64,000 nt of DNA from Candidatus Forterrea multitransposorum CG_2015-17_Forterrea_25_41 (GTDB lineage: Archaea > Iainarchaeota > Iainarchaeia > Iainarchaeales > CSSED10-239): positions 576,001 to 640,000 of the forward strand of contig CP045477.1 of assembly GCA_009392915.1 (NCBI GenBank). Direction: 5' to 3'. This document shows positions 1,073 to 56,707 of the stretch, one piece after another. The translations under genes were made by a program, and so were the position numbers. The notes below the pieces were generated by a model. The model saw only the letters and a program-made list of their open reading frames with translations. It was not told where the DNA came from and did no database searches. Position 1 is the first letter of the stretch; each line of letters opens with the position of its first letter.

Positions 1073-3265
1073 TTATTCTAAGCCACCATCAGTAATAGTC
1101 CAATTATAATTATTAATTAATATATTTTTTGCATCAACTGCAGAACTATCATAATTAACTGCTGTTGCACCTAATGTAACATTACTTTTTAAATTAGTTA
1201 AATTTGACCATCTAATTAAAATATTAGAATAATTTACAGTAGATAATGCATAATCAAACATATGAGCCATATCAGTTACATTTGAAACATCCCATGCACT
1301 AATATCTTGATCAAAACAAATATCAGAAATACTAAAGAAACATTGAAACATTCTGTTCATATTTGTAACATTTGAAACATCCCACATACTTATATTTTGA
1401 TTAAATGAATAATTATTATAAAACATAGAAGACATATCAGTTACATTTGAAACATCCCAATTATTCAATGGTTGATTAAATCTAGTACATCTAAACATTG
1501 CAGCCATATTAGTTACATTTGAAACATCCCAATTATTTATAGAAGTATTAGTCCATGAAAATACACCATTATTTGGAGGACTACTTACACTACAATTTTG
1601 ATAACCACTAAAAGTTCCTGCTAAATTTGTAATTCCGTTTAAATCAGGAACATCAGTTGCAGTTACAACTAAATTTGTAGCTCCAGAGAAATAATATCCA
1701 CTATTTCCAAATTTTAAATTACCCCATTGACTAATTTCAGTTAATTTTAATTTATCTCCAGAATTATTAAACCTAAAACCTTCAATAAAACCTGTTATGA
1801 TTACATCATATATCCCAGAACTTGAATATGTGTGAGTTTTATCAGGATCACTATAACTTGTAACCTCTGATGTAGTTCCATCTCCCCAATAAACTTTAAA
1901 ATTATAATTATTACTATAAAGAGAAGCAGAATCTAAAGGTAATGTAATTTGATTTGCATTTGAAGAACCAGTACTAATTTTTGTAGTATCCCATTTAGAT
2001 ATAAATGCATCTGAAGTAGGTATAAAATTTGCAGTTAAATTCACATTACTTGAAGGCATTGTATAACTAAATGAAGGATCTGTACTTACTACAGTACCAT
2101 TTTGATCAATCCAATTTACATAAGAAAATTCAGCAATAGAAGAGACAGATATATTTGCAACATCTCCAGGATTATAATTTCCTGCACCATTTAAACTAAT
2201 ATTTACTGAATCTGGATTTTCAATTAAATTTAAATTATAAGCAACAGGCAAACTAAAAGTTGCAGTTACATTTTTAACTTCAGTCATAGAAACAGAACAA
2301 CTAATTTGAGGTCCAGAACAATCCCCAGACCATCCTTCAAAAACATATCCTGAAACTGGAGTTGCATTTAATTGAACAGATTGTTGATCAGGAAAAGTTG
2401 CAGAACAGTTTGTTTGAGATTCTAAACAATTAATTCCAGAAGGATAAGTTTCAACAGTTCCTCCAATTGTTTTAGTTAAATTTAAAGTATAACTGTTTGG
2501 AAGATTAAAAGTTGCAGTTACATTTCTTGCTTGAGTCATGGAAACTGTACAAGTAAGATTAGTTCCTGAACAAGCACCTGACCATCCACCAAAACTATGA
2601 CCAGTAACAGGATTTGCAGTTAAAGTAACTGAAGTGCCTGAAGAATAATTTTCAGAACAATTAGTTCCACAATTAATACCAGAAGGATTTGAAGTCACAG
2701 TTCCATTTCCCGCACCACTTAAAGATACATTTAAAGTATAAGTTGATGGAGCAGTTGATGAAAAATTTGCAGTTAAAGAAGTATTTGAATTTAAATTAAA
2801 AGTATATGGATTTGTGGAAAGTGAACCTGTTGGAGTTGTCCAATTATTAAAAGTATAACCTGAAAGAGCAGTTGCAGTTGCAGTAACTGAAGTTCCACAA
2901 CTAAAAGTTCCAGCTCCTGAAACAGTACCACCTGCTGGAGGGTTTGAAGATAAAGTTAAAACACAATTACTACCAACACCTGAAATTGGTTCATAATCTT
3001 CAGGATTTGTTAAATCTTTAATAAAACCATCAATTGTTGAATTTGTAGCAGCATCAATTTCTCCTGCTTGATCTACTTTTTCATTTGTAAATCCAATTAA
3101 AATAGTTGCTAAAATAACAGCACCTAAAATCAAAACACCAATAATAATTATCATCTCTAAAGAGACTTGAGCTTTTTTACTTTTATTCATATCTTTATCC
3201 ACTTTTTTTACTTTTTTAGATTTTATTATTTTTTTAGATTTAATTTTTTTAACTTCTTTTTTCAT
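1073..3265 (-). CDS. Large pilin-like surface protein with a class III signal peptide, three InlB-type B-repeat (Ig-like) domains and a C-terminal array of DUF285/BspA-type 26-residue repeats. The true start is probably the internal Met at about 3190
   Basis: An internal MNKSKKAQVSLEMIIIIGVLILGAVILA matches the N-termini of the two neighbouring genes. It has the repeated unit GTVTSNPSGINCGTNCSENYSSGTSVTLTANP...GWSGxCSG. C-terminal repeats of the form WDVSNVTxMxxMF(x)FNQ match the Mycoplasma-type DUF285 leucine-rich surface repeat. Confidence 0.6.
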   Translation of the reverse strand: MKKEVKKIKSKKIIKSKKVKKVDKDMNKSKKAQVSLEMIIIIGVLILGAVILATILIGFTNEKVDQAGEIDAATNSTIDGFIKDLTNPEDYEPISGVGSNCVLTLSSNPPAGGTVSGAGTFSCGTSVTATATALSGYTFNNWTTPTGSLSTNPYTFNLNSNTSLTANFSSTAPSTYTLNVSLSGAGNGTVTSNPSGINCGTNCSENYSSGTSVTLTANPVTGHSFGGWSGACSGTNLTCTVSMTQARNVTATFNLPNSYTLNLTKTIGGTVETYPSGINCLESQTNCSATFPDQQSVQLNATPVSGYVFEGWSGDCSGPQISCSVSMTEVKNVTATFSLPVAYNLNLIENPDSVNISLNGAGNYNPGDVANISVSSIAEFSYVNWIDQNGTVVSTDPSFSYTMPSSNVNLTANFIPTSDAFISKWDTTKISTGSSNANQITLPLDSASLYSNNYNFKVYWGDGTTSEVTSYSDPDKTHTYSSSGIYDVIITGFIEGFRFNNSGDKLKLTEISQWGNLKFGNSGYYFSGATNLVVTATDVPDLNGITNLAGTFSGYQNCSVSSPPNNGVFSWTNTSINNWDVSNVTNMAAMFRCTRFNQPLNNWDVSNVTDMSSMFYNNYSFNQNISMWDVSNVTNMNRMFQCFFSISDICFDQDISAWDVSNVTDMAHMFDYALSTVNYSNILIRWSNLTNLKSNVTLGATAVNYDSSAVDAKNILINNYNWTITDGGLE
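1270..1535. repeat. Nucleotide-level tandem array with four or more copies of an acatttgaaacatccca core spaced about 72-90 bp apart. It encodes the WDVSNVT...MF 26-residue repeats
   Basis: The core occurs at about 1277, 1367, 1443 and 1515. Confidence 0.7.
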
Positions 3266-10495: not shown

Positions 10496-10804
10496 TTAAT
10501 TTCCAAAAAGTTTACTAAAATCAACATCTCCAACATCATCTTCTTTTTTACCACCAGAAAAGTAATTTGTAATAACTATAATTAGTAAAAGAACTACTGA
10601 AGAGATTAATAAAAAATTAATATCACTTGCAAGAAGGAAGAAAATTAAAAAATAACCTGCTAAAACTAAAAGATTCCACCAACTTTTATCAAATAAAAAG
10701 TAAATACCTAAAATAAAAGGAATAAATATTAAAAGATCATACTTAATGCATAAAATAACTATAACCAACAAAAAGATTCTTGATAATATAGCTTCCAAAT
10801 GCAC
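10496..10804 (-). CDS. Small integral membrane protein (hypothetical)
   Basis: Three predicted hydrophobic helices. Confidence 0.35.
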   Translation of the reverse strand: MHLEAILSRIFLLVIVILCIKYDLLIFIPFILGIYFLFDKSWWNLLVLAGYFLIFFLLASDINFLLISSVVLLLIIVITNYFSGGKKEDDVGDVDFSKLFGN

Positions 10805-10812
10805 ACGTCCTT

Positions 10813-11079
10813 TTAAATTCTAAAATCCTTTAATAATTTTTTAATATCTGGTTTGCTTACAGAAAATAAAAGTGCACCAATTACTGCAAACCAAACAAAA
10901 TCAGGATATTGTACAAATAATAAATATACAATAACAATTGTAATAATTACTGAAAAAGTATTGTTTGCAACTTTACTTTTTGTCCAGGAATATATTACCA
11001 TTGAAATAACAATTAAAAGCACAATCCAGACAACATGCTGGAACGCACTTAAATATATAATATTATTCATACCTCTCAA
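10813..11079 (-). CDS. Small integral membrane protein (hypothetical)
   Basis: Two hydrophobic helices. Confidence 0.35.
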   Translation of the reverse strand: MRGMNNIIYLSAFQHVVWIVLLIVISMVIYSWTKSKVANNTFSVIITIVIVYLLFVQYPDFVWFAVIGALLFSVSKPDIKKLLKDFRI

Positions 11080-11106
11080 TTAAATAAAGAAAGAAAAGAT
11101 TTAAAA

Positions 11107-11715
11107 CTATTTAGCTTTTCTTAATTTTGCTCTATTTGAAGGACCAGCTTTTTCAGTTCCTGTTCCTTTCTTCACAAGACCTCTATTTTTCTTACCTGCA
11201 CTTGTAAGTCCTCTTTGAGCTCTTGAAGAATGTTTTTCAGAAACTATCCAATTAAGATCCATATCATTAATTATTGATGGGTGATTTGGATCAACCATTA
11301 TAACTTCAAAATATTTCTTTTGACCATCTTCGCCAACATAATATGAATTTAAAACTTCTAAATTTTCAAAAGCCTTATCTGCTTTTTGTTCTGCCATTCT
11401 TTGAATAGAAACTCTTCTTGTAATTTTATTTATTCCCATTCTTTTTGGTCTTCTAGCGTTTTTAGGTCTTAAAATTAAACCTCCACCTTTTCTTACCTTA
11501 ACAAAAACAACAGAAACTCCTTGTTTTGCTTTATAACCAAGTTCTCTTGCTCTAGGTATATTTGATGGTTTATCAACTTTAACTATTGAACCTTCTAATT
11601 TTCTAAATTCAATTAATTTTTTTGTATAAATTTGTCTATAATCATAATTAGTATCTCTTTTTTTCTTATATTCATTTTGAATTGTTTTCTGAATATATTT
11701 ATTTGCACTTGTCAT
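11107..11715 (-). CDS. rpl15e: 50S ribosomal protein L15e
   Basis: It contains VRKGGG, RPKNARRPKRMG and a basic KRK-rich tail. Length and pattern fit L15e. Confidence 0.8.
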   Translation of the reverse strand: MTSANKYIQKTIQNEYKKKRDTNYDYRQIYTKKLIEFRKLEGSIVKVDKPSNIPRARELGYKAKQGVSVVFVKVRKGGGLILRPKNARRPKRMGINKITRRVSIQRMAEQKADKAFENLEVLNSYYVGEDGQKKYFEVIMVDPNHPSIINDMDLNWIVSEKHSSRAQRGLTSAGKKNRGLVKKGTGTEKAGPSNRAKLRKAK

Positions 11716-11871
11716 AAAAAAATCACACTCTTTTTAATTTGTTTTAAACTATTATTATTTTATATTTAAAATAATTATAAATAACTATGAAACGAAATGT
11801 TTATATATTAGATGGAAATTAAAGGCTAAATTAACCTTATTTTCATAAAAAATAACAAAATAAGAAGTATT

Positions 11872-12051
11872 ATGCTTAAAAAGAAAATAACAATAACAAA
11901 AAATGACTTTAATAAAACTTTAAGAGATATACTAATAGATCTTAATATAAATCCAGAAACAGTACTTGTAAAGATAGATGGAATATTTAAACCAATATCA
12001 ACTGTTATAAAAAAAGAAACTGAAATAGAAGTTTTAGTTGTAATAAAGTGA
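11872..12051 (+). CDS. Small beta-grasp (ThiS/MoaD-like) protein of 59 aa lacking a C-terminal Gly-Gly. It was not in the ORF track
   Basis: Translation MLKKKITITKNDFNKTLRDILIDLNINPETVLVKIDGIFKPISTVIKKETEIEVLVVIK resembles the ThiS pattern (L.....V.V.vNGe.v......l.dgD.ievl). It ends 8 nt upstream of ncsA. Confidence 0.35.
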   Translation: MLKKKITITKNDFNKTLRDILIDLNINPETVLVKIDGIFKPISTVIKKETEIEVLVVIK

Positions 12052-12058
12052 AAAAAAT

Positions 12059-12994
12059 ATGAATATTAAATGCGATAAATGTTCTAAAGATGCTTTAATA
12101 TATTTAGCATACGGAAAGCATAATTTCTGTAAAGATCACTTTAATGATTTTTTTGAAAGTAGGTTTAAAAAAACAATTAGACAATTTAAACTTTTTTCAC
12201 AAAAAGATTATTTAGGAGTTGCAACTTCTGGTGGAAAAGACTCAATGGTTTTACTTTATTTAATAAATAAAATATTTAGAGAAAAAAGAATTAATTTCTG
12301 TGCAATCTTTGTTGACGAAGGAACTGATAATTATTCAAATAAAACTTTCCAAGTTGTTAAAGATTTTTGTACTAAAGAAAATATTAAACTTGTAACCTCC
12401 TCTCATAAAAAAGAATTTGATATATCAACACAAGAGATTGGAGAAAAATATGATAAAAAAGAAGGAACTGTTTGCACTTATTGTGGAGTTTTAAGAAGAA
12501 AAACATTAAACAGACTTGCAAATAAAGAAAAAGTTTCAAAACTTCTAACAGGACATAATTTAGATGATGAATGTCAAACTATTTTAATGAATCTTTTAGA
12601 TAATGATACCTTAAGATTTTTTAGAACAGGTCCTGAAACAGGAATTATTGATATTGAAAATACAAGACCTAGAATTAAACCATTTTACTTAACTCCTGAA
12701 AAAGAAATTGCAGCATATGCTCTCTTTAATCAAATACCTTTTCATGATTGTAATTGTCCTTTCTTTAGAACAGCTAAAAGAAATCATTTTAGAAATTTTT
12801 TAAATGAAACAGAAATTATACATCCTGGATCTAAATTTTCATTAGTTAAAAGTTTTTTAAAAATAAAAGAACTTTCAAATCTTAAAAAAATAATTACTAA
12901 AAAAAATCTAAAAAAATGTAAAATTTGTAAAGAAGATACAAGTCAAGATATATGTAAGGCATGCGAGTTAATTTCAAAAATTAAAAAGATATAA
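12059..12994 (+). CDS. ncsA: tRNA 2-thiolation protein NcsA/Ncs6/Ctu1-like (PP-loop ATPase with zinc fingers)
   Basis: An N-terminal CDKCSK...C zinc finger is followed by the SGGKDS PP-loop. C-terminal CxxC pairs fit the Ncs6/TtcA family. Confidence 0.7.
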   Translation: MNIKCDKCSKDALIYLAYGKHNFCKDHFNDFFESRFKKTIRQFKLFSQKDYLGVATSGGKDSMVLLYLINKIFREKRINFCAIFVDEGTDNYSNKTFQVVKDFCTKENIKLVTSSHKKEFDISTQEIGEKYDKKEGTVCTYCGVLRRKTLNRLANKEKVSKLLTGHNLDDECQTILMNLLDNDTLRFFRTGPETGIIDIENTRPRIKPFYLTPEKEIAAYALFNQIPFHDCNCPFFRTAKRNHFRNFLNETEIIHPGSKFSLVKSFLKIKELSNLKKIITKKNLKKCKICKEDTSQDICKACELISKIKKI

Positions 12995-13122: not shown

Positions 13123-14760
13123 ATGAATCCTATAAAAGATTTAAAAACTGCATCTGAAAAGATAAAACAAAATAGTGAAAAACTAAAAGATGACTTTATT
13201 AATTATAAATATATATTAAATCAGATTAAGCAGATTATAGATTTTCAAGACGCTTTAATTGACCCTTTAAAATCACAAAAGAAAATTTTAAAGAAAATAA
13301 TTAAAAGAAATAAAAATACTGAGTATGGTAAAAAATATTCTTTTTCTAAAATAAAAACTATTGAAGATTTTCAAAAACAAGTACCAATTATAAAATATAA
13401 TGATATTTCAGAAGATATTGAAGAGATAAAAAAAGGAAAACAAAATATTTTTACTAGAGACAAAGTAGTATACTTTGCATCAACCTCAGGAACTACAAGT
13501 AAGATTAAACTTATACCTGTTACGAAGCAAAGAATAAAAAATTATAATAAAGAATTTGCTTTATGGGCTGTATATGTTCTAAAAGATTATGTGAAAATTG
13601 CAAATGGAAAAACACTTTATTTTGCAGGACCTTATTTTGAAGGTAAAACAAAAGGTAAAATACCATATGGTAGTATCTCTGGATACCTTCCTTTTAAATC
13701 ACCTTGGTATGTTAAAAAGAAAATATCAAATCCAATAAATGTTTATAACGAAATGAATTTTAATAAAAAAATTAAAAAAATGGCAATCCATGCACTCCAA
13801 GAAAATATAACCCAAATTGCTTTCACAGCACCAATTGAAGCCATTCTTTTTTTAGATTATATAAAAGAAAATAAAACTAAATTAATAAAAATAATTAAAA
13901 AGAAAAATTCTAAAAGAGCAGAATATCTATCCAAAATTGATGATTTTAAAGCGATTAATATTTGGCCAAATATAGGACTTGTAAGTTGTTTTAGATCAAA
14001 GACAAATGAAATGTATATTGACACATTAATGAAAAAAATTGGTAAAAAAATTGAAATTAGAGATCCAGGTATAAATGCTTCTGAAGGTAGAATATCTATT
14101 GGTATATCAAAAGATGGTATTTCAGGAGTATTTCCATTAAATACAACTTTTTTTGAATTTATTGATTTTAATAAAGAAAAAAAAGAAATAATTACAGTAG
14201 ATAAATTAAAATTAAATAGAAAATATAAAGTAATAATTACAACTCAAGAAGGACTATATAGATATGATATGGGAGATGTTGTAAAAGTAACCAGTTTCTT
14301 TAAAAAGATTCCTGAAATTAAATTTTTTACAAGAGAAAATTATCTTAATATCGCAGGAGAACTTGCATATGAAGATGAAATTGTTAAAGCTTTAAAAAAA
14401 TCTTTCACAGAAGAAAATTTTAAAATTAAATACTACACTGTAATTCCATATCTTAAAGATCTTTCAAAAAAACCAAGATATGAAATATTACTTGATCTTG
14501 AAGAAAATAAAACTGAAAAAGAAATTATAAAACTAAAAGAAAAAATAGATTTAAATCTTAAAGAAACAATAAACGACTACAAACAAATGAGAGAAGAGTT
14601 TGGAAGAATGGATATGCCAGTTATATCTATTCTTGAAAAAAATAGTTATGATGAATTTAATAAAAAAAGAGTTGTAGGCTCTGGAAATCCAAAACCAATA
14701 AATATACATCCTGAGCAGAATTTTAGAGAAAATTTTAAAATAAAGAAAACATATGAATAA
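13123..14760 (+). CDS. GH3-like acyl-adenylate-forming (amido synthetase family) protein
   Basis: It has the STSGTTSKIKLIPVT adenylation motif near residue 120, the YRYDMGDVV motif, and a size of 545 aa. Confidence 0.45.
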   Translation: MNPIKDLKTASEKIKQNSEKLKDDFINYKYILNQIKQIIDFQDALIDPLKSQKKILKKIIKRNKNTEYGKKYSFSKIKTIEDFQKQVPIIKYNDISEDIEEIKKGKQNIFTRDKVVYFASTSGTTSKIKLIPVTKQRIKNYNKEFALWAVYVLKDYVKIANGKTLYFAGPYFEGKTKGKIPYGSISGYLPFKSPWYVKKKISNPINVYNEMNFNKKIKKMAIHALQENITQIAFTAPIEAILFLDYIKENKTKLIKIIKKKNSKRAEYLSKIDDFKAINIWPNIGLVSCFRSKTNEMYIDTLMKKIGKKIEIRDPGINASEGRISIGISKDGISGVFPLNTTFFEFIDFNKEKKEIITVDKLKLNRKYKVIITTQEGLYRYDMGDVVKVTSFFKKIPEIKFFTRENYLNIAGELAYEDEIVKALKKSFTEENFKIKYYTVIPYLKDLSKKPRYEILLDLEENKTEKEIIKLKEKIDLNLKETINDYKQMREEFGRMDMPVISILEKNSYDEFNKKRVVGSGNPKPINIHPEQNFRENFKIKKTYE

Positions 14761-32303: not shown

Positions 32304-34331
32304 ATGGTTTTTCCTTCTTTAAAAGTTACAAAAGAACTTACAGATAAGATAAGTAAACTTGAAGAAATAGAAAATACTAGAAGTGAAGATGAAGAAAAAA
32401 TCATAAATCAATTTTTTAAAAAAGAAATATCTCAAAAACAATTAATTTCTCTATTAAGAGAGAAAAAAATACAATCTATTTCTAAAAAAACAGATATTAA
32501 GGCAGTACATGCACTTGTAGATTATAATAAAACTTTAGCAAAGTTATCAGAAAATCTACAACTACAAAAAATACCTATTTATAGTATTGAAAATAGATCT
32601 ACGTTTAAAAGAATTTTAAAAAACTTATTTACAAAGAAAACTAAAAAAATAAAACCAAAGAAAGTAGAAGTTAAAAAAGATATTGATACAAAAAAAGAAA
32701 CTGAAATTAAAAAAGACACAAAAATTGAAACCAAAAAAGAAAAGAAAGATACAAATATCTTTGATAGAATATTTAAGAAAAGAGAAGCATTAGTTACAAA
32801 AGTTGAAGAAAAACATGAAATCAAACCAACTTTTGAACCTCCAAAAGAACTTTTACCTGAAAACTATCAAGTCTTAATACATGGTTTTGCATATGCCTTT
32901 ATTAGAGAATCAGAAAATGAAAGAATATATGTTGTTGCAGAACCAGAACTTACAGAAGAAGAAGAAAGAATTTTAAAAGAAACTAGAGAATCACTTATTA
33001 ATAAAATATCACTTGCAGATCTTACTGATGAGTCTCAAATGTATACTTTAGTTGAAAAAATATTTACAAGAAATAAAATAAAACTTGAAAAAGAACAAAA
33101 AGATAAAATTGTTTATTATATTATAAGACAAGTAAGTGGACTTGATAAAATAGAACCACTTATGCATGATCCATTAATTGAAGATATTGAGTGTGATGGT
33201 ATAGGGATACCAATCTTCATTGTTCATAGAAAATATGGACACATTGTAACAAATATTGTTCTAGATACAGAAAATGAACTACAACAATTTATTATAAAAA
33301 TGGCACACCTTTGTAAAAGTTATGTTTCATATGCATCTCCACTTTTAGATGCAATTTTACCAGATGGATCTCGTGTAAATGCAACATTAACTTCAAATGT
33401 TTCAACAAGAGGACCAACTTTTACAATCAGAAAGTTCCCTCAAAAACCATTAACAACAATTGATTTAATTAACTCTGAAACAATCACTCCAGAAATTGTA
33501 TCATATCTTTGGACATTACTTGAATTTAAAAAGAACATGATATTAATTGGACCAACAGCTGGTGGAAAAACAACACTTCTAAATGTAATTTCTTCATTTA
33601 TACCAGAAGCACAAAGAGTAGTATCAATTGAAGATACAAGAGAAATTAATCTTTTACTTAACAACTGGATTCCACAGATTACAAGAAGTGGTTTTGGACC
33701 TCCTGATCAAAATGGAAAAAGATATGGTGAAGTTAACATGAATGATCTTTTAAAAGAATCATTCAGACAAAGACCAGATTACTTAATTATCGGTGAAGTA
33801 AGAGGAGAAGAAATGGCTTTAATGTTCCAGGGTATGGCATCTGGACACTGTTCTCTATCAACAGTACACTCTAAAAGTGTAGAAGCATTAATTACAAGAA
33901 TTACAACTCCTCCAATCTCTTTAGATCCTTCACTTATAACAAGTCTTGATATTGTAATTGTAACAGGATTTACTGGTGTTGGAGAAGAAGGAAAGAGAGA
34001 AATTAAAGAAATTGATGAAATTAAAGGTTATAATAGTAAAGATAAGAAAGTAGAATATAATCCAATATATAAATCAATAGATAAATTTAAAGAAAAAAGT
34101 GCAACTTCACAAAGTGATCTTTTCCATAAAGAAACAGCTTTAGTATACAATAGTGATGTTTTAAAAGAAATATGTACAGAACATAATATTTCTAAAAAGA
34201 AAATGACAGATATAATAATGGCAAGAACTAAATTTATTGAAGCACTTACTAAAAACCCACCAAAAGATTACGTAGAATTTAATAAACTACTTAAAAATTA
34301 TAAAAGAAAAGAAGATTTTACTGAAAATTAA
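32304..34331 (+). CDS. Type IV pilus/archaellum-family assembly ATPase (PilB/FlaI/TadA-like secretion NTPase)
   Basis: It has Walker A LIGPTAGGKTTLLN, an Asp box and Walker B ...RPDYLIIGEVRG, and the His box ...GHCSLSTVHS. An N-terminal K-rich extension is present. Confidence 0.75.
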   Translation: MVFPSLKVTKELTDKISKLEEIENTRSEDEEKIINQFFKKEISQKQLISLLREKKIQSISKKTDIKAVHALVDYNKTLAKLSENLQLQKIPIYSIENRSTFKRILKNLFTKKTKKIKPKKVEVKKDIDTKKETEIKKDTKIETKKEKKDTNIFDRIFKKREALVTKVEEKHEIKPTFEPPKELLPENYQVLIHGFAYAFIRESENERIYVVAEPELTEEEERILKETRESLINKISLADLTDESQMYTLVEKIFTRNKIKLEKEQKDKIVYYIIRQVSGLDKIEPLMHDPLIEDIECDGIGIPIFIVHRKYGHIVTNIVLDTENELQQFIIKMAHLCKSYVSYASPLLDAILPDGSRVNATLTSNVSTRGPTFTIRKFPQKPLTTIDLINSETITPEIVSYLWTLLEFKKNMILIGPTAGGKTTLLNVISSFIPEAQRVVSIEDTREINLLLNNWIPQITRSGFGPPDQNGKRYGEVNMNDLLKESFRQRPDYLIIGEVRGEEMALMFQGMASGHCSLSTVHSKSVEALITRITTPPISLDPSLITSLDIVIVTGFTGVGEEGKREIKEIDEIKGYNSKDKKVEYNPIYKSIDKFKEKSATSQSDLFHKETALVYNSDVLKEICTEHNISKKKMTDIIMARTKFIEALTKNPPKDYVEFNKLLKNYKRKEDFTEN

Positions 34332-48054: not shown

Positions 48055-48738
48055 TTAAACATACCCTTCAATGTATGCTGTTTTTGTTTTTATAAAAAGC
48101 TTTTTGGATAATTCAGGAAAAATTAAACCTTTTTTTAATTTACACACAAATTCAAAAAGTCCAATAGCAGGATAAGGAAGCAAATTATAATGAATATTTT
48201 CAAAAATAAATCCATTTAGAAAAACAGATAGCTCAGAAAGGTAATATTCAGATAATTTTTCTAACTCATTTAAAGTAAAAGATTTATCTGAAAAAAGATT
48301 TTTAATATAATTTAAAACATAATTTCTAAAAAGAATATTAGTATTAAATTCATCAAAAATTAAACACCTGTTTTTTTTATAATCAAAAGAATTAATTACA
48401 TCTTTCCAACGAACAATAATAATTTTTTTTTGAATATCTTGCAGATATTTTGCAATGATTTTTTCACACAATCTTTTTACTTGAGATCCTTTCTTAAAAG
48501 CAGTTTTTTTAGCAGAATCTTTTGAAAGATTAAAAAATATTTCATCATTAATAGCTTGGATTTCATCTGCAATTAAAATAGCTACTTTTTCGTTTGTATT
48601 TTCTAAAGCCCAATCTAAATATCTTTTAATATGTTCTTCAGAAAAATAATTATTTCTTACACTTATTCCAATATAAATATTAAATTTTTTATTTTTAACT
48701 TCAGTTTCATTTGTTAAAAAATAATTTTTAATAATCAT
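48055..48738 (-). CDS. Putative tRNA-dependent cyclodipeptide synthase (CDPS family)
   Basis: IYIGISVRNNYFS matches the AlbC-type GIS(x2)N(x)YFS pocket with the catalytic Ser. A downstream Y-x-x-x-E (YYLSE) and a later Tyr (HYNLLPY) match the CDPS catalytic Y/E/Y. The protein is 227 aa. The AlbC comparison was made from memory. Confidence 0.45.
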   Translation of the reverse strand: MIIKNYFLTNETEVKNKKFNIYIGISVRNNYFSEEHIKRYLDWALENTNEKVAILIADEIQAINDEIFFNLSKDSAKKTAFKKGSQVKRLCEKIIAKYLQDIQKKIIIVRWKDVINSFDYKKNRCLIFDEFNTNILFRNYVLNYIKNLFSDKSFTLNELEKLSEYYLSELSVFLNGFIFENIHYNLLPYPAIGLFEFVCKLKKGLIFPELSKKLFIKTKTAYIEGYV

Positions 48739-52859: not shown

Positions 52860-53891
52860 TTAAAAGATCCTATCAAAACCATTTATTTCAAAAACATAAA
52901 TTAATAAATTATAAGAATTAGCATAATTTGCATACCCTAAAAAAGAAAAAAGAGAAGAATTAAAATTAATTAAAGAAATTTTTTTAGAATTTAATAAAAG
53001 ATTATTAAGTTTTTGTCTTTTTATAAATCTCTTAACATTTGATTTTCTTAGTTTTACTTTAGTTGGGTAAATTTTATAACCTAAAAAATCAACCCCTTTA
53101 TCTACTAAATTAATATAAGTTTTGTTTTTAGGAATTGTAAGTAACAAATTATTTTTTAAAAATAATTTAATTTTTCTTCTGAAAATACTTAACTCTTGTT
53201 TAGAATTTGAAAATATTAAAAAATCATCAACATACCTATAATAGTGTTTGATTTTTAAAGTATGCTTAATATATTGATCAAGCTCATTTAAATAGATATT
53301 TGCAAAAAGTTGAGAAGTTAAATTACCAATAGGAATTCCTTTTTTATTATTTAAAAACGAAAAAGAATAACTATCTATTATTTTATATATTATAACCAAT
53401 AATTGCTTGTCTTTAATTCTTTTTTTTATAATATATTTTAAAACCTCTTTTTCAATAGAAGGAAAATATTTTTTAACGTCTTGTTTTAAGTAATATTTAG
53501 GAGATTTTTTAGATTGAACTAATTTTTTTATTTCTAAAAAACCTTTAAAAGTACCTTTTCCTTTTCTACATGCAAAAGAATTATTTATAAAAGTTTTATC
53601 AAAGATAGGCTCAATAATATTTATAATTGCATGTTGAACAACGACATCTCTAAAACAAGGAGCACTAATAATTCTTTCTTTAGGTTCATATACCTTAAAA
53701 TTTCTATATGGAGAAAAATTAAAATTACCAGAAATTAATTCTTCTTGTATTAAAAATAATTCTTTTTCAAGATTTTGAGTAAATTTTAAAATATATTTCT
53801 TATTAGGATTTGATTTTCTGGCACGTTTATATGCATTATAAATGTTTTTAAAAGAAGTAAATTCTTCCCAAAGATTATTATATGATTTCAT
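52860..53891 (-). CDS. DGR reverse transcriptase
   Basis: It has the RT motifs IISAPCFRDVVVQHA (motif 1/2), ...YFPSI... (motif 3), PIGNLTSQLFANIYL (motif 4 in the DGR-specific [I/L]GxxxSQ form rather than QGxxxSP), and YYRYVDDFLIFS (motif 5 YxDD). It is 343 aa with no maturase or endonuclease domain. Confidence 0.85.
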   Translation of the reverse strand: MKSYNNLWEEFTSFKNIYNAYKRARKSNPNKKYILKFTQNLEKELFLIQEELISGNFNFSPYRNFKVYEPKERIISAPCFRDVVVQHAIINIIEPIFDKTFINNSFACRKGKGTFKGFLEIKKLVQSKKSPKYYLKQDVKKYFPSIEKEVLKYIIKKRIKDKQLLVIIYKIIDSYSFSFLNNKKGIPIGNLTSQLFANIYLNELDQYIKHTLKIKHYYRYVDDFLIFSNSKQELSIFRRKIKLFLKNNLLLTIPKNKTYINLVDKGVDFLGYKIYPTKVKLRKSNVKRFIKRQKLNNLLLNSKKISLINFNSSLFSFLGYANYANSYNLLIYVFEINGFDRIF

Positions 53892-54148
53892 TTTTTATAG
53901 AACCTATTAAAAATTAAAAGTTATTACAGATTTCTTTAATCTAATAAAATTAAAATACTAAATGTAATAACTTATTTTTATATTCGATTTTTAAAACATA
54001 AAAACAAAAATGTTTTTATGGCATACCTTATATGCAATCAGGAAACATTTTACAGATGTAGTTTTTAGAATATACACTTTGCATATTTTAAAAAATAAAA
54101 ATAAATATACAAACTCTGATAAAACCTTATTTCTTTAAAAATAAGGAG

Positions 54149-54269
54149 AAACTACTGAACACAGCGCAGGCCGATGTTGTTGTTCCGGTTCCCAGGAGTA
54201 TTGTTCAAGTTCAAGTTCAAGACCCCTGCATTAGTTCCATTGTTCCAGTTACCACCGCGCAGGAAAGAA
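54149..54269 (-). repeat. DGR template repeat (TR), 121 bp and non-coding
   Basis: It is a near copy of 55343-55463 but carries AAC/AAT codons in the minus orientation where the genic copy has mixed bases. It lies between the avd stop and the RT start. It is GC-rich against the AT-rich background. Confidence 0.85.
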
Positions 54270-54345
54270 ACGACTCCTTTTTCTGTAAAAGCCCTATTCT
54301 TTTTATAACTAAAAAGAACAAAATAAATAATTATTAGAAAAGTTT

Positions 54346-54675
54346 TTATAAATTATGCTTTAAAAGCCCCCCAATTAATTTACCTAAATCATTTAGTTTT
54401 TTAGAAATAACTTCATATTTTTTAAAAGAAATAATTTTTAGATCAAAAGAGAGCCTCACATATATTTTTAAAAGTTCTAAATCAGTATCAATTTGATTTA
54501 AAGTATTAATTTTATGTTTTGAAAAAAGAATAGTATTAGATAATAAAGAAATAGTAGTTTTTTTCAAATCTTCTCCTAAAATATATTTGTCAGATTTAGG
54601 AAATTTTTTAATTTCAGGATAAATATAAAGTAAAAAGTTATATGTTTCTTTATATAACTTTAAATCAAATAACAT
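54346..54675 (-). CDS. avd: DGR accessory variability determinant (Avd-like four-helix-bundle protein)
   Basis: LYKETYNFLLYIYPEIKKFPKSDKYILGEDLKKTTISLLSNTILFSK matches the Avd/four-helix-bundle family (the Bordetella phage Avd has ...YLYPIAQSIPRKHG...). It is 109 aa and sits between the target and the TR. Confidence 0.7.
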   Translation of the reverse strand: MLFDLKLYKETYNFLLYIYPEIKKFPKSDKYILGEDLKKTTISLLSNTILFSKHKINTLNQIDTDLELLKIYVRLSFDLKIISFKKYEVISKKLNDLGKLIGGLLKHNL

Positions 54676-54685
54676 ATTATAAACA

Positions 54686-55093
54686 CTATTTTTTATTTTC
54701 TTCTATTTTTTTTATAAGTCCATTAAAATATTTAATTTTTTCTTCAAATTGATTATAAAAAAAAAGAATTTTATCTTTAGATAAATCTTTATTAATTTCA
54801 CTTAATATAAGTAAATTTGATTGAGTTGTAGAAACACAATCTCTTGAATAAGAATAAAGTAATGATTTTTCATTAGAATGATATTTATTATATCCTTTTG
54901 ATAAAAAAGAAAGAATATTTATTAAATTTGAAATAGTTTCTTGAAAAATAAAATTATCATTTATAGATGATTTATTTTCTTCTAAAAATTTATAAGTATT
55001 AATAACTAAAGGAAAGAGTTCTTTGTAAACCCCAAAATTTAAAATTCCTCTTTCTATATTTACTAAACTCATAACAACCATATTTTTGTCCAA
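54686..55093 (-). CDS. Hypothetical protein (second small accessory ORF within the DGR cassette)
   Basis: 135-aa ORF co-oriented between the target gene and avd. No motif was recognised. Confidence 0.35.
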   Translation of the reverse strand: MDKNMVVMSLVNIERGILNFGVYKELFPLVINTYKFLEENKSSINDNFIFQETISNLINILSFLSKGYNKYHSNEKSLLYSYSRDCVSTTQSNLLILSEINKDLSKDKILFFYNQFEEKIKYFNGLIKKIEENKK

Positions 55094-55342
55094 TATATAT
55101 TGTGATTTATTAAAACCACTTTAATTGAGTAGCAAATTTTTTTGTAAAAAACAAAAAAATTTGCAAAAGCAAAAAACATTTGCTTTCTCTTTTGCCAATT
55201 TATTTTTTTCTTTTTTCACTTTTATTTTTTATTTTTTTGCACAAACTCAATCTTGAAGCATTGTTTTTCGCGACGTTACCCGTCTTACCGTCTTGCCGTC
55301 TCACCCGTCAAAATACAATATTCTCGAAATACATTTTTTCAA

Positions 55343-55463
55343 AAACTACTGAACACAGCGCAGGCCGACGACGCTGCCCCGGCCCCCAGGAGTAAAGTTC
55401 AAGCGCAAGCCCAAGACCCCCGCATTAGTTCCACTGCCCCAGCCACCACCGCGCAGGAAAGAA
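55343..55463 (-). repeat. DGR variable repeat (VR), covering the last 40 codons and stop of the target gene plus 3 nt
   Basis: It is a 121-bp, indel-free copy of the TR. It carries 20 substitutions, all at positions where the TR has A on the minus strand. Confidence 0.85.
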
Positions 55464-56707
55464 TATACAGTAGTAGAAGTATCTCCAAAATCACTATAAG
55501 TGTAAATTCTACCAACACCATTATCTGCTGCATTATAATTATTACTTGTAAGTAAAAATAAATCTTTATACTCTAAAGTGGTATTACCTAAATTATCAGA
55601 AGAAATGTATTGGGCTTCTCCACCACCTTTTGAATAATCAAAATAATCAAAACCAGTAGTAAAGTTACTATCATCAGCATTGTTAAAACCATCAGGTTGG
55701 TCTTTTCTTTGGATAGTGTCACTTGTCCATTGCCAAACATTACCAGCTAAGTCCCAAATTACTTCACCGTTTGTTAAAGTTAAGGTTCTTTTTGTAGTGC
55801 CAGAAAGTTCATCAAAACCTTCCATAGCACCAGAAGAAGAAGAATTACCACGTGGAAGATAACCTTCTCCAACAACTCCAGTTGACCAGTTTGAAGGTAC
55901 TTGTTCAATGTTTCTTGCAATGGTCATCCATTCGTCATTTGTTATTAAATGTCCACCTACTGCAGCACAAGCTGCAATAGCTTCGGTTTGGGAAATTCTT
56001 GCTATTGGAGAACCTTCTGGAGTTGATACTAAAGTGCCTGGAGTAGGACATAATTCATAACTATAAGTATTATAGGTTAAAGAACCAGTATTACAATCTG
56101 GATAATCAGCTACAAGGTTTCCTTTACCATCTCCATTTGCATCCATTTTCATTTCATATTTTGAAACACAAAAACCACCACGCTCATTCATGGTTCCATA
56201 TAAATGGTTTCCTGGAACTGGAACATAGCCTTCTGGACAAGAAAGAGGAGTTTTTACGGTTTGAAAAAGATCAGGTTTAGTTATCATTTGAGAATTGTCT
56301 AAATATAAAACTAAATCTAAAGAGTCACCTAAAATACCATGATCAAGAGTAGCAGATTGATTGGAAAGAATAGTGACAGGAGGTTCTAAAGGATTAATGT
56401 TTGAATTGCCTAATAAACTATAACCGGTAATGGTAATAGAAGTATAAGGAGAACCATAAGGGGGTTTATACTCTAGAAGAGAACGACCATTGATAGAAGA
56501 TTTAATATTTAAATAAAAGCCAGTTTCTGATTCTGTATAAACTTCAATACTTGAAGCTTTAGAAAAAGAATCATTGGTAAAGCCTTTACCCCAAGAAAGA
56601 ATAATACCAATAATAGCAACAGAGACAACTATTAAAAGAATGGTGGCTATCAAAGGAGAAATACCTTTTTGAAATCTAAAACGCTGAAAAATATATTTGA
56701 AAAACAT
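55346..56707 (-). CDS. DGR target protein: a pilin-like N-terminus (class III signal peptide) plus an FGE-sulfatase/C-type-lectin-fold domain with the variable region at its C-terminus
   Basis: The N-terminus FQKGISPLIATILLIVVSVAI matches the archaeal pilin/archaellin G-x-SP-[LV]-IAT-[VI]-LLI motif. The C-terminal half (GGFCVSKYEMK ... LRGGGWGSGTNAGVLGLRLNFTPGGRGSVVGLRCVQ) matches the FGE-sulfatase fold ending in R-C-V. The last 40 codons overlap the VR. Confidence 0.8.
   Translation of the reverse strand: MFFKYIFQRFRFQKGISPLIATILLIVVSVAIIGIILSWGKGFTNDSFSKASSIEVYTESETGFYLNIKSSINGRSLLEYKPPYGSPYTSITITGYSLLGNSNINPLEPPVTILSNQSATLDHGILGDSLDLVLYLDNSQMITKPDLFQTVKTPLSCPEGYVPVPGNHLYGTMNERGGFCVSKYEMKMDANGDGKGNLVADYPDCNTGSLTYNTYSYELCPTPGTLVSTPEGSPIARISQTEAIAACAAVGGHLITNDEWMTIARNIEQVPSNWSTGVVGEGYLPRGNSSSSGAMEGFDELSGTTKRTLTLTNGEVIWDLAGNVWQWTSDTIQRKDQPDGFNNADDSNFTTGFDYFDYSKGGGEAQYISSDNLGNTTLEYKDLFLLTSNNYNAADNGVGRIYTYSDFGDTSTTVYSFLRGGGWGSGTNAGVLGLRLNFTPGGRGSVVGLRCVQ

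Follow-up and report, generated by a model that had tools for sequence, protein, structure and literature searches.

The 64,000-nt stretch of archaeal DNA analyzed here, referred to as the window, carries a diversity-generating retroelement (DGR), and we conclude with high confidence that it is a complete, intact chromosomal DGR of a DPANN archaeon from groundwater, diversifying the tip of a predicted pilin-like surface protein. Its parts all lie on the minus strand, in the order target gene with variable repeat (VR), an additional open reading frame (ORF), avd, template repeat (TR), and reverse transcriptase (RT) gene, and each is found where a first-pass annotation of the sequence had placed it (Table 1; coordinates throughout are window positions).

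The repeat pair and the reverse transcriptase

The TR and VR constitute the sole long direct repeat of the region, and a repeat search aligns them with 83% identity. On the coding strand, 20 of the 121 positions differ, every one of them a TR adenine (20 of the 31) where the VR has G, C, or T instead; the hypergeometric probability of such an all-adenine placement is 2.4e-15. The pair exceeds the DGR criterion of Paul et al. 2015, namely no fewer than 10 mismatches at adenines and no more than two non-adenine mismatches per 100 bp (PMC4372165). When the TR is searched as a pattern with its adenines masked, only two copies are present in the window, the TR and the VR themselves, with 0 expected by chance. 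The TR was proposed to be noncoding, and the ORF map indeed contains no minus-strand ORF of at least 50 aa that covers it. It offers 17 mutable codons, 13 of them AAC or AAT, a stop codon is impossible in the mutable zone, and the theoretical repertoire is ~8e15 peptides. The GC-rich segment at the 3′ end of the VR is identical in the two repeats, and its two adenines are invariant across alleles; by comparison with the initiation of mutagenic homing (IMH) element of Bordetella phage BPP-1 (PMC5758913), this segment would sit at the place of an IMH-like 3′ boundary of information transfer.

Table 1. Parts of the DGR and associated elements, by window position
Feature	Position	Strand	Size	Remarks
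Target gene (variable protein)	55346..56707	-	453 aa	From ORF map
VR	55343..55463	-	121 nt	Last 38 codons (416-453) and stop codon of target
VR mutable zone	55369-55444	-		Repeat positions 20-95; 29 TR-adenine positions
VR invariant GC-rich 3′ segment	55343..55368	-	26 nt	TCGGCCTGCGCTGTGTTCAGTAGTTT
GC-rich element	55280..55309	-		Four GACGG units, 8-9 nt period
Perfect inverted repeat	55132..55164	-	13 bp	GCAAATTTTTTTG / CAAAAAAATTTGC, 7-nt loop; between target and ORF135
ORF135	54686..55093	-	135 aa	TTG start
Avd	54346..54675	-	109 aa	Isoelectric point (pI) 9.5
TR	54149..54269	-	121 nt	Non-coding; 31 adenines
Stem-loop	54125..54146	-	9 bp + 4-nt loop	Begins 3 nt past TR
AGAGTTT	54111-54117	-		Invariant; after post-TR stem-loop
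Spacer motif	54053..54066	-		AAAAACUACAUCUG; candidate cis-priming partner of TR 3′ end
RT	52860..53891	-	343 aa	Contains GIPIGNLTSQLFAN (IGNLTSQ) and YVDDF

Searched against the whole PDB sequence set, the RT gives a full-length alignment with 8ub7_A (194.8 bits, E = 1.9e-56), a chain that is 100% identical to the brt product of phage BPP-1, and the best matches to group II and retron-type RTs score 80 and 74 bits, respectively. The segment IGNLTSQLFAN aligns with IGSLTSQLFAN of Brt, and the equivalents of Brt R74 and I181, two residues demonstrated to promote adenine mutagenesis (PMC7826257), are conserved. The first-pass annotation had pointed to a DGR-diagnostic motif and a YVDDF box; the box is present, and IGNLTSQ fits the DGR signature [I/V/L]GxxxSQ and not the QGxxxSP of group II RTs (PMC7826257). 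These comparisons place the RT in the DGR clade, as had been proposed.

Automated labels would suggest a different identity, in which the protein is a group II intron, retron, or defense-type RT and the repeat a coincidental duplication. Pfam recognizes the generic RVT_1 domain only, the NCBIfam collection yields no match to a DGR-specific RT model, its top named match is group_II_RT_mat (155 bits), and members of the RT cluster carry the Joint Genome Institute (JGI) label 'retron-type reverse transcriptase'. However, the group II match is far under its 300-bit cut-off and the score against Brt is more than double that of any group II or retron RT in the PDB, Rfam gives no match to an intron RNA or retron noncoding RNA, and the adenine-restricted mismatches (P ~2e-15) and the adjoining curated Avd also speak against this identity. 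We regard it as refuted and give it practically no credence.

The 109-aa protein encoded beside the TR had been called Avd-like, and it passes the curated cut-offs of both NCBIfam NF033474 DivGenRetAVD (90.8 bits; cut-off, 80) and Pfam PF22296 bAvd (76.9 bits; cut-off, 40). Of the 80 genome loci nearest to this one, 47 have an Avd gene adjoining the RT; in DGRs at large, Avd is present in ~74% and has a mean pI of 9.5 (PMC5758913).

Evidence of past diversification

Variation within the lineage was examined by comparing consensus assemblies, in which minority variants stay hidden. Seven sequences make up the 90%-identity cluster of the target, and their differences are concentrated in the last 30 residues. 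The TR varies by 0 to 3 nt across strains in this cross-assembly comparison, and the VR is present as six distinct alleles in related assemblies, with 27 of the 30 variable positions corresponding to TR adenines; strains that are ~96.5% identical over 12 kb bear unrelated VR alleles. Two TR single-nucleotide polymorphisms (SNPs) at non-adenine positions, C7T and T73G, are mirrored in the cognate VRs and therefore point to information transfer from TR to VR. Another SNP of the TR, at position 113 within the last 9 nt, is not mirrored in the VR, which is compatible with a 3′ boundary of transfer. Judged from these alignments, the DGR has worked in this lineage, by mutagenic homing with adenine-restricted VR turnover.

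The host and related copies of the cassette

The RT protein is found on JGI contig 3300007985 Ga0100381_1000002 (663,621 bp), and the identical sequence recurs in 92 collection blocks. Its neighbors are archaeal housekeeping genes, including those for the alpha and beta subunits of phenylalanyl-tRNA synthetase (PheRS), LonB, PCNA, RFC, ABCE1, PolB, and aIF5A, and the nearest named genomes are 'Candidatus Iainarchaeum' metagenome-assembled genomes (MAGs), with RT identities of 82% and 76%, together with a fragment that is 100% identical. Gene content and nearest relatives thus agree with the earlier proposal of an archaeal chromosome, and they assign the host to a DPANN archaeon of the Candidatus Iainarchaeum lineage (Iainarchaeota/Diapherotrites). 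Genomes of this lineage are ~0.66-0.84 Mb in size with ~24% GC, and the genes for the RT and accessory proteins are just as AT-rich. The cassette occupies the identical place in strains that are ~96.5% identical, between genes for a metallo-beta-lactamase-fold hydrolase and a 263-aa membrane protein beside PheRS, and this shared position amid housekeeping flanks supports a resident chromosomal element.

A second complete DGR, paralogous to that of the window and here called cassette 2, is present at loci L096-L098 (JGI 3300025016/32/33; for example, L097:1600-8005). Its order is DDE transposase, 457-aa target, 128-aa Avd-like ORF, 109-aa Avd, TR, 338-aa RT, and AAA_14/DUF4143; its parts are 77-80% identical to those of the window, and it has a TR of its own with 10 differences, as well as a VR in which 12 of 13 mismatches are at adenines. 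Cassette 2 probably lies in the same genome as the window cassette, outside the window, because its NCBI locus-tag prefix, GW776, is shared with the homolog of the window's ORF135. A remote target paralog (L002:5001-6620; JGI 3300042275 Ga0451658_000012) encodes a 458-aa protein that is 94% identical to the window target; in a related strain the remote target is ~225 kb from the RT of that contig (L010), with no adjacent Avd or RT gene. Of the 15 mismatches between its VR and the TR of its own strain, 14 are at adenines. It also has ~240 nt of the sequence downstream of the VR in common, the GACGG element among them, a pattern that suggests trans-targeting.

Collapsed copies are present in Candidatus Iainarchaeum MAGs (L016:4310-6965; L017:4369-7011 and 10720-12990). 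They retain a target and an RT gene and are without Avd, ORF135, or a second repeat, and in both loci the TR-downstream spacer directly follows the target stop codon, an arrangement indicating deletion by homologous recombination between VR and TR. In L017, codon 72 of the RT gene is an in-frame stop, and the unit occurs twice, 6,351 bp apart.

The first-pass annotation described the cassette as a resident system rather than a phage remnant, and its syntenic position amid housekeeping genes in several strains bears this out. An origin as part of a prophage, virus, or other mobile element would be in keeping with the many DGRs that are phage-borne, such as that of BPP-1, and with phage matches of the RT, the DDE transposase adjoining cassette 2, and the differing genomic places of copies in related genomes. 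For the window cassette, however, the flanks to left and right are housekeeping genes, all strains examined have it in the same position, the GC content of its genes is host-like, no integrase, capsid, or terminase genes are seen nearby and no tRNA gene flanks it, and the published catalogue of DGR RTs (see below) classes the RT's operational taxonomic unit (OTU) as cellular. We therefore consider a mobile element very unlikely and treat the cassette as resident in the chromosome.

Two further genes of the window are recorded here. A homolog of cyclodipeptide synthase is encoded at 48055-48738 (minus strand; PF16715 above cut-off, with E = 1e-10), between the genes for PheRS beta and a class I aminoacyl-tRNA synthetase; it is unusual for a reduced DPANN genome and is absent at that position in the related strains L010 and L013. 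A GH3-family protein of the acyl-acid amido synthetase type, with three GH3 domains above cut-off, is encoded at 13123-14760 (plus strand).

A putative pilin-like target with a C-type lectin fold

The target C terminus had been expected to match PF03781 or a C-type lectin (CLec) fold, and both expectations hold. The protein matches PF03781 FGE-sulfatase above cut-off (E = 3.6e-9), and among 66 family members, 50 match FGE-sulfatase and 15 match Pilin_N. An AlphaFold2 (AF2) model built from the 66 homologs (pLDDT 87.8) combines a long helix at the N terminus (residues 18-49) with a beta-sandwich (~66-148) and a CLec/FGE-like alpha/beta domain at the C terminus that bears the VR. Foldseek searches with this model return the DGR variable proteins TaqVP (6.8e-9) and Bordetella Mtd (2.8e-5), with formylglycine-generating enzymes also matching, and match the N terminus to the archaeal type IV pilus subunit 8fk7 (1.3e-4).

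In a class III signal, a [K/R]-G/A cleavage motif at the N terminus precedes a hydrophobic alpha-helix. The target N terminus, MFFKYIFQRFRFQKG/ISPLIATILLIVV..., resembles such a prepilin-type signal, with the motif FQKG/ISPLIATILLIVVSVAIIG, and JGI names several of its homologs 'flagellin-like'. The JGI gene call on the source contig begins 18 codons downstream and gives 435 aa; this shorter call omits the region 56654-56707, with the positively charged leader and the KG/IS motif, and the 453-aa model is the one found in NCBI and most assemblies. Taken together, we infer a modular pilin-like surface protein with the VR in a C-type-lectin-fold ligand-binding domain; display on the surface or on a pilus is predicted, and adhesion to host cells or particles is a plausible function.

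The window also encodes a T2SSE-family ATPase (type II/IV secretion, PilB/FlaI-like; 32304-34331, plus strand), ~21 kb from the target gene, and a 730-aa DUF285/InlB B-repeat protein with a pilin-like signal, KKAQVSLEMIIIIGVLILG (1073-3265, minus strand). Because of these two genes, the window appears on annotation to hold further type IV filament-related surface components. Elsewhere on the source contig, at ~540 kb, three tandem pilin-like genes (L099:2515-7288; 494, 445, and 617 aa) share the N-terminal 40-50 residues of the target at 62-71% identity. P0069, the second of the three, has 47% overall identity with the target; it was considered as a further target of the window TR and rejected as it has no VR-like match to this TR.

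ORF135, a putative divergent relative of Avd

The gene between target and avd encodes a protein, ORF135, with a pI of 8.5. The window protein alone has no Pfam match, and just 15 close homologs were found among 5.8 billion proteins; a profile search of 1.84 billion representatives yielded 59 relatives. PF05635 is matched by 5 of the 16 members of the close-homolog alignment, and of 46 remote relatives, 30 match PF05635 (best, 1.5e-39) and 5 match bAvd. The family profile finds PDB 2gsc, a PF05635 structure, with an E value of 4.6e-12. A PDB profile search using only the close homologs was negative, as was an hhalign comparison with 41 DGR Avds (1.5% probability). The AF2 model (pLDDT 85.6) has four long helices forming a four-helix bundle, and the Foldseek leaders are 2rld, 2gsc, 4dwl (BPP-1 Avd), and 8ub7_E, the Avd chain of the bRT-Avd ribonucleoprotein (RNP), with template modeling scores of up to 0.84 but E values of 8e-3 or weaker.

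ORF135 is kept at the same position in L019 (33% identity, E = 1.6e-19), where the RT is only 52% identical to that of the window, and counterparts are present in L020 and in cassette 2 (79% identity); it is absent from the remaining nearest genome loci (80 examined). We conclude from profile and model comparisons that ORF135 is a putative divergent protein of the Avd superfamily (PF05635-type), a lineage-specific accessory encoded alongside a canonical Avd. A close Avd paralog was considered and set aside: the hhalign comparison and the close-homolog PDB profile are negative, and the deeper profile and the structure alone link it to PF05635. Possession of two avd-type genes by one DGR is rare, with precedent, as two avd genes were found in 1 of 372 DGRs by Wu et al. 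(PMC5758913). ORF135 may act as an extra RNP subunit.

RNA and DNA elements of the cassette

RNA comprising the 3′ end of avd, the TR, and the spacer folds better than its shuffles (z = -3.8). Stem-loops of differing sequence occur at the same post-TR position in L016, L019, and L018, and the invariant AGAGTTT follows. In BPP-1, the five Avd protomers are all bound by a stem-loop so placed, and a post-TR stem-loop occurs in 207 of 278 Avd-containing DGRs (10.1101/2023.10.23.563531); by analogy, that of the window is likely an Avd-binding element. Within the spacer, AAACUAC is complementary to GUAGUUU at the 3′ end of the TR, ACUACA is present in all five lineages, and there is one compensatory change (L018). 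This TR:spacer duplex is a candidate template:primer pair for cis-priming.

On the DNA side, the GACGG x4 element lies 37 nt downstream of the target stop codon and is conserved downstream of the cis, remote, and cassette-2 VRs (cassette 2 being 78% identical), with diverging flanks; the 13-bp inverted repeat is likewise conserved in both cassettes and at the remote target, again with diverging flanks. Both are GC-rich islands amid DNA of ~20% GC. The GACGG element is a candidate target-site or protein-binding element, and the inverted repeat a candidate terminator or operator. A scan for sigma-70 promoters and terminators showed no excess, the sigma-70 model being uninformative for an archaeon.

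Weight of the evidence for a working DGR

Several observations weigh against an active DGR with a pilin-like target. Within the population of the window itself, at least 35 contigs bear the target, in two alleles only, one VR nucleotide apart, which is not the pattern expected from independent homing events. The sequence difference between IMH and IMH* that would distinguish VR from TR is absent in the window, and a BPP-1-like hairpin or cruciform downstream of the VR was not detected (z = 0.05 for the DNA fold relative to shuffles); with a fold no better than that of shuffled sequence, this candidate was dropped. The energy of the GUAGUUU/AAACUAC candidate primer duplex is also no better than that of shuffled controls. 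Finally, the pilin models are all sub-threshold for the target protein: Pilin_N scores 15.7 bits (cut-off, 25.2), TIGR02537 (arch_flag_Nterm) 15.4 (cut-off, 20), and UpsA 23.5 (cut-off, 130).

The window differs from L005 by 1 nt in 10,655 bp, at VR position 92 (window 55372), a TR-adenine site; relative to L005 and L009, this change results in Val versus Leu at residue 446. Ongoing homing was considered as its source and rejected since the remaining 19 substitutions are common to the two alleles, and the difference is better read as a point mutation at a hypervariable site, which may possibly have been selected.

A DGR that looks intact but is now silent or very rarely active, with the present VR allele fixed after past diversification, would account for the identical RT in all those collection blocks, for the near-uniform target on its many contigs, and for the near identity of the window and L005; 19 of 20 substitutions are common to both alleles, hence no separate homing events, and DGR decay is evident in the sister loci, both in the collapsed L016/L017 copies and in the in-frame stop of the L017 RT. 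Nonetheless, the TR and all four ORFs remain intact and conserved despite ~3.5% background divergence, the VR allele differs in every strain-level lineage, the sole difference between near-identical populations hits a TR-adenine site of the VR, and the consensus nature of the assemblies applies here too. On balance we think present-day silence unlikely, although less so than either rival considered above, and continue to favor an intact DGR that diversifies its target.

A model for target diversification

In the mechanism that we envisage, a transcript of the avd 3′ end, TR, and spacer would fold and bind both the RT and Avd, and the stem-loop just past the TR would likely serve as the Avd-binding element on the DGR RNA. 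The RT would copy the TR into cDNA, misincorporating specifically opposite adenines, and this cDNA would take the place of the homologous VR in the target gene's 3′ end, with the TR staying intact. Each VR replacement could recode up to 17 codons, mostly AAC/AAT, and stop codons could not arise. The C-type-lectin-fold domain would have its binding face rewritten, with attachment to host cells or particles as a plausible use.

A more elaborate reading combines three proposals: that the canonical bAvd and ORF135 act as a two-component Avd, forming a mixed or alternative RNP with the RT; that the DGR diversifies an adhesive C-terminal module of the target, a programmable pilus or surface adhesin with which a DPANN episymbiont attaches to its host; and that GACGG x4 is a new target-site marker. 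As a combination we hold this to be speculative and rather doubtful. If it were true, GACGG x4 would replace the IMH*/hairpin logic of BPP-1 and permit trans-targeting of remote paralogs.

Prior knowledge and significance

The first-pass annotation, in calling DGRs rare in archaea, overstated the novelty of the locus. Archaeal DGRs were first reported in 2015, in a virus and in Nanoarchaeota (PMC4372165), they are called prevalent in DPANN lineages in a 2019 review (PMC6349945), and the presence of multiple and fragmentary cassettes per genome is already noted in this literature. Moreover, the exact RT is already catalogued: the supplement of Roux et al. 2021 (PMC8144416) lists Meta_3300007985_Ga0100381_1000002107, an RT gene on this contig, and gene number 107 fits the RT position near 89 kb. 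This entry represents a 27-member RT-OTU that is classed as cellular, Aquatic:Groundwater, with target class Cell_TM:PC_00001, and whose consensus taxonomy is 'Bacteria' (NA 23, Bacteria 3, Archaea:DPANN 1) (PMC8144416). The assignment to Bacteria is apparently mistaken, because the flanking genes and nearest MAGs are those of Iainarchaeum. The locus is thus already catalogued, though without individual description.

In the literature searched, we did not find an explicit description of a DGR for Iainarchaeota/Diapherotrites, a lineage that is part of DPANN, nor were an extra PF05635-type accessory gene of DGRs, the GACGG element, or a pilin-type N terminus on an archaeal DGR target found described there. 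That DPANN DGRs diversify CLec proteins is established, and the locus confirms existing knowledge without changing it. Its value is as a convenient model of DGR maintenance, duplication, and loss in host-dependent archaea and of the surface structure that is diversified: the archaeal DGR is very clean and intact, its tiny DPANN genome is nearly complete, and the strain VR alleles, cassette 2, the remote target, and the copies collapsed by recombination between VR and TR are natural public comparators. Whether the targets of archaeal DGRs belong to the membrane or the surface was left open by Roux et al. 2021 (PMC8144416); the pilin-type N terminus, together with the type IV filament ATPase in the window, offers a testable answer for this lineage.

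Comparison with known systems

The prototype among the closest known systems is the BPP-1 DGR (mtd-avd-TR-brt), with which the window DGR shares the order target/VR, avd, TR, RT, a full-length RT alignment at 195 bits, the RT motif IGxLTSQLFAN and the R74/I181 equivalents, an Avd of the bAvd family, a CLec-fold target with a C-terminal VR, an AAC-rich TR, and a stem-loop directly past the TR. Unlike the phage system, it is chromosomal and archaeal and carries ORF135, an additional gene of putative Avd-superfamily type, between its target and avd; its target is pilin-like, in contrast to the BPP-1 tail-fiber protein, and it is without IMH/IMH* mismatches or a stable VR-downstream hairpin, having GACGG x4 there instead. 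ORF135 resembles the pentamers of the PF05635/Avd superfamily (2gsc, 2rld, and 4dwl) in its four-helix bundle and similar size, and differs from them in that it has no Pfam match itself and a negative hhalign comparison with DGR Avds; relative to a canonical Avd, it is less basic (pI 8.5 versus 9.5) and additional to it.

Among DPANN DGRs, those of Nanoarchaeota DUSEL4, Pacearchaeota, and Woesearchaeota (Paul et al. 2015, PMC4372165; Paul et al. 2017 as cited in PMC6349945) are likewise cellular and belong to ultra-small, presumably host-dependent archaea of subsurface or groundwater, and they and the present lineage are alike in having several cassettes and fragmentary copies per lineage. The window DGR is B1-like (avd-TR-RT), whereas ~90% of the candidate phyla radiation (CPR)/DPANN set of Wu et al. 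is B3 (PMC5758913). Its target has a recognizable FGE/CLec domain and a pilin-like N terminus, whereas nanoarchaeal targets are orphans (PMC4372165) and targets of archaeal clade-5 DGRs are typically without recognizable transmembrane or other domains (Roux et al. 2021, PMC8144416).

TaqVP of Thermus aquaticus (PDB 5vf4) is the best structural match of the target and has a CLec fold accommodating its VR in the same way; sequence identity is 16-18%, and the window target has, in addition, a beta-sandwich and an N-terminal helix of archaeal pilin type. The type V pili of Bacteroides are bacterial, whereas the signal in the window target is archaeal type IV pilin-like and its pilus link is predicted from sequence and model; nonetheless, as described in the preprint on type V pilus adhesins (bioRxiv 10.1101/2024.11.15.621889), the Bacteroides DGR likewise rewrites the ligand-binding module of a pilus-associated protein.

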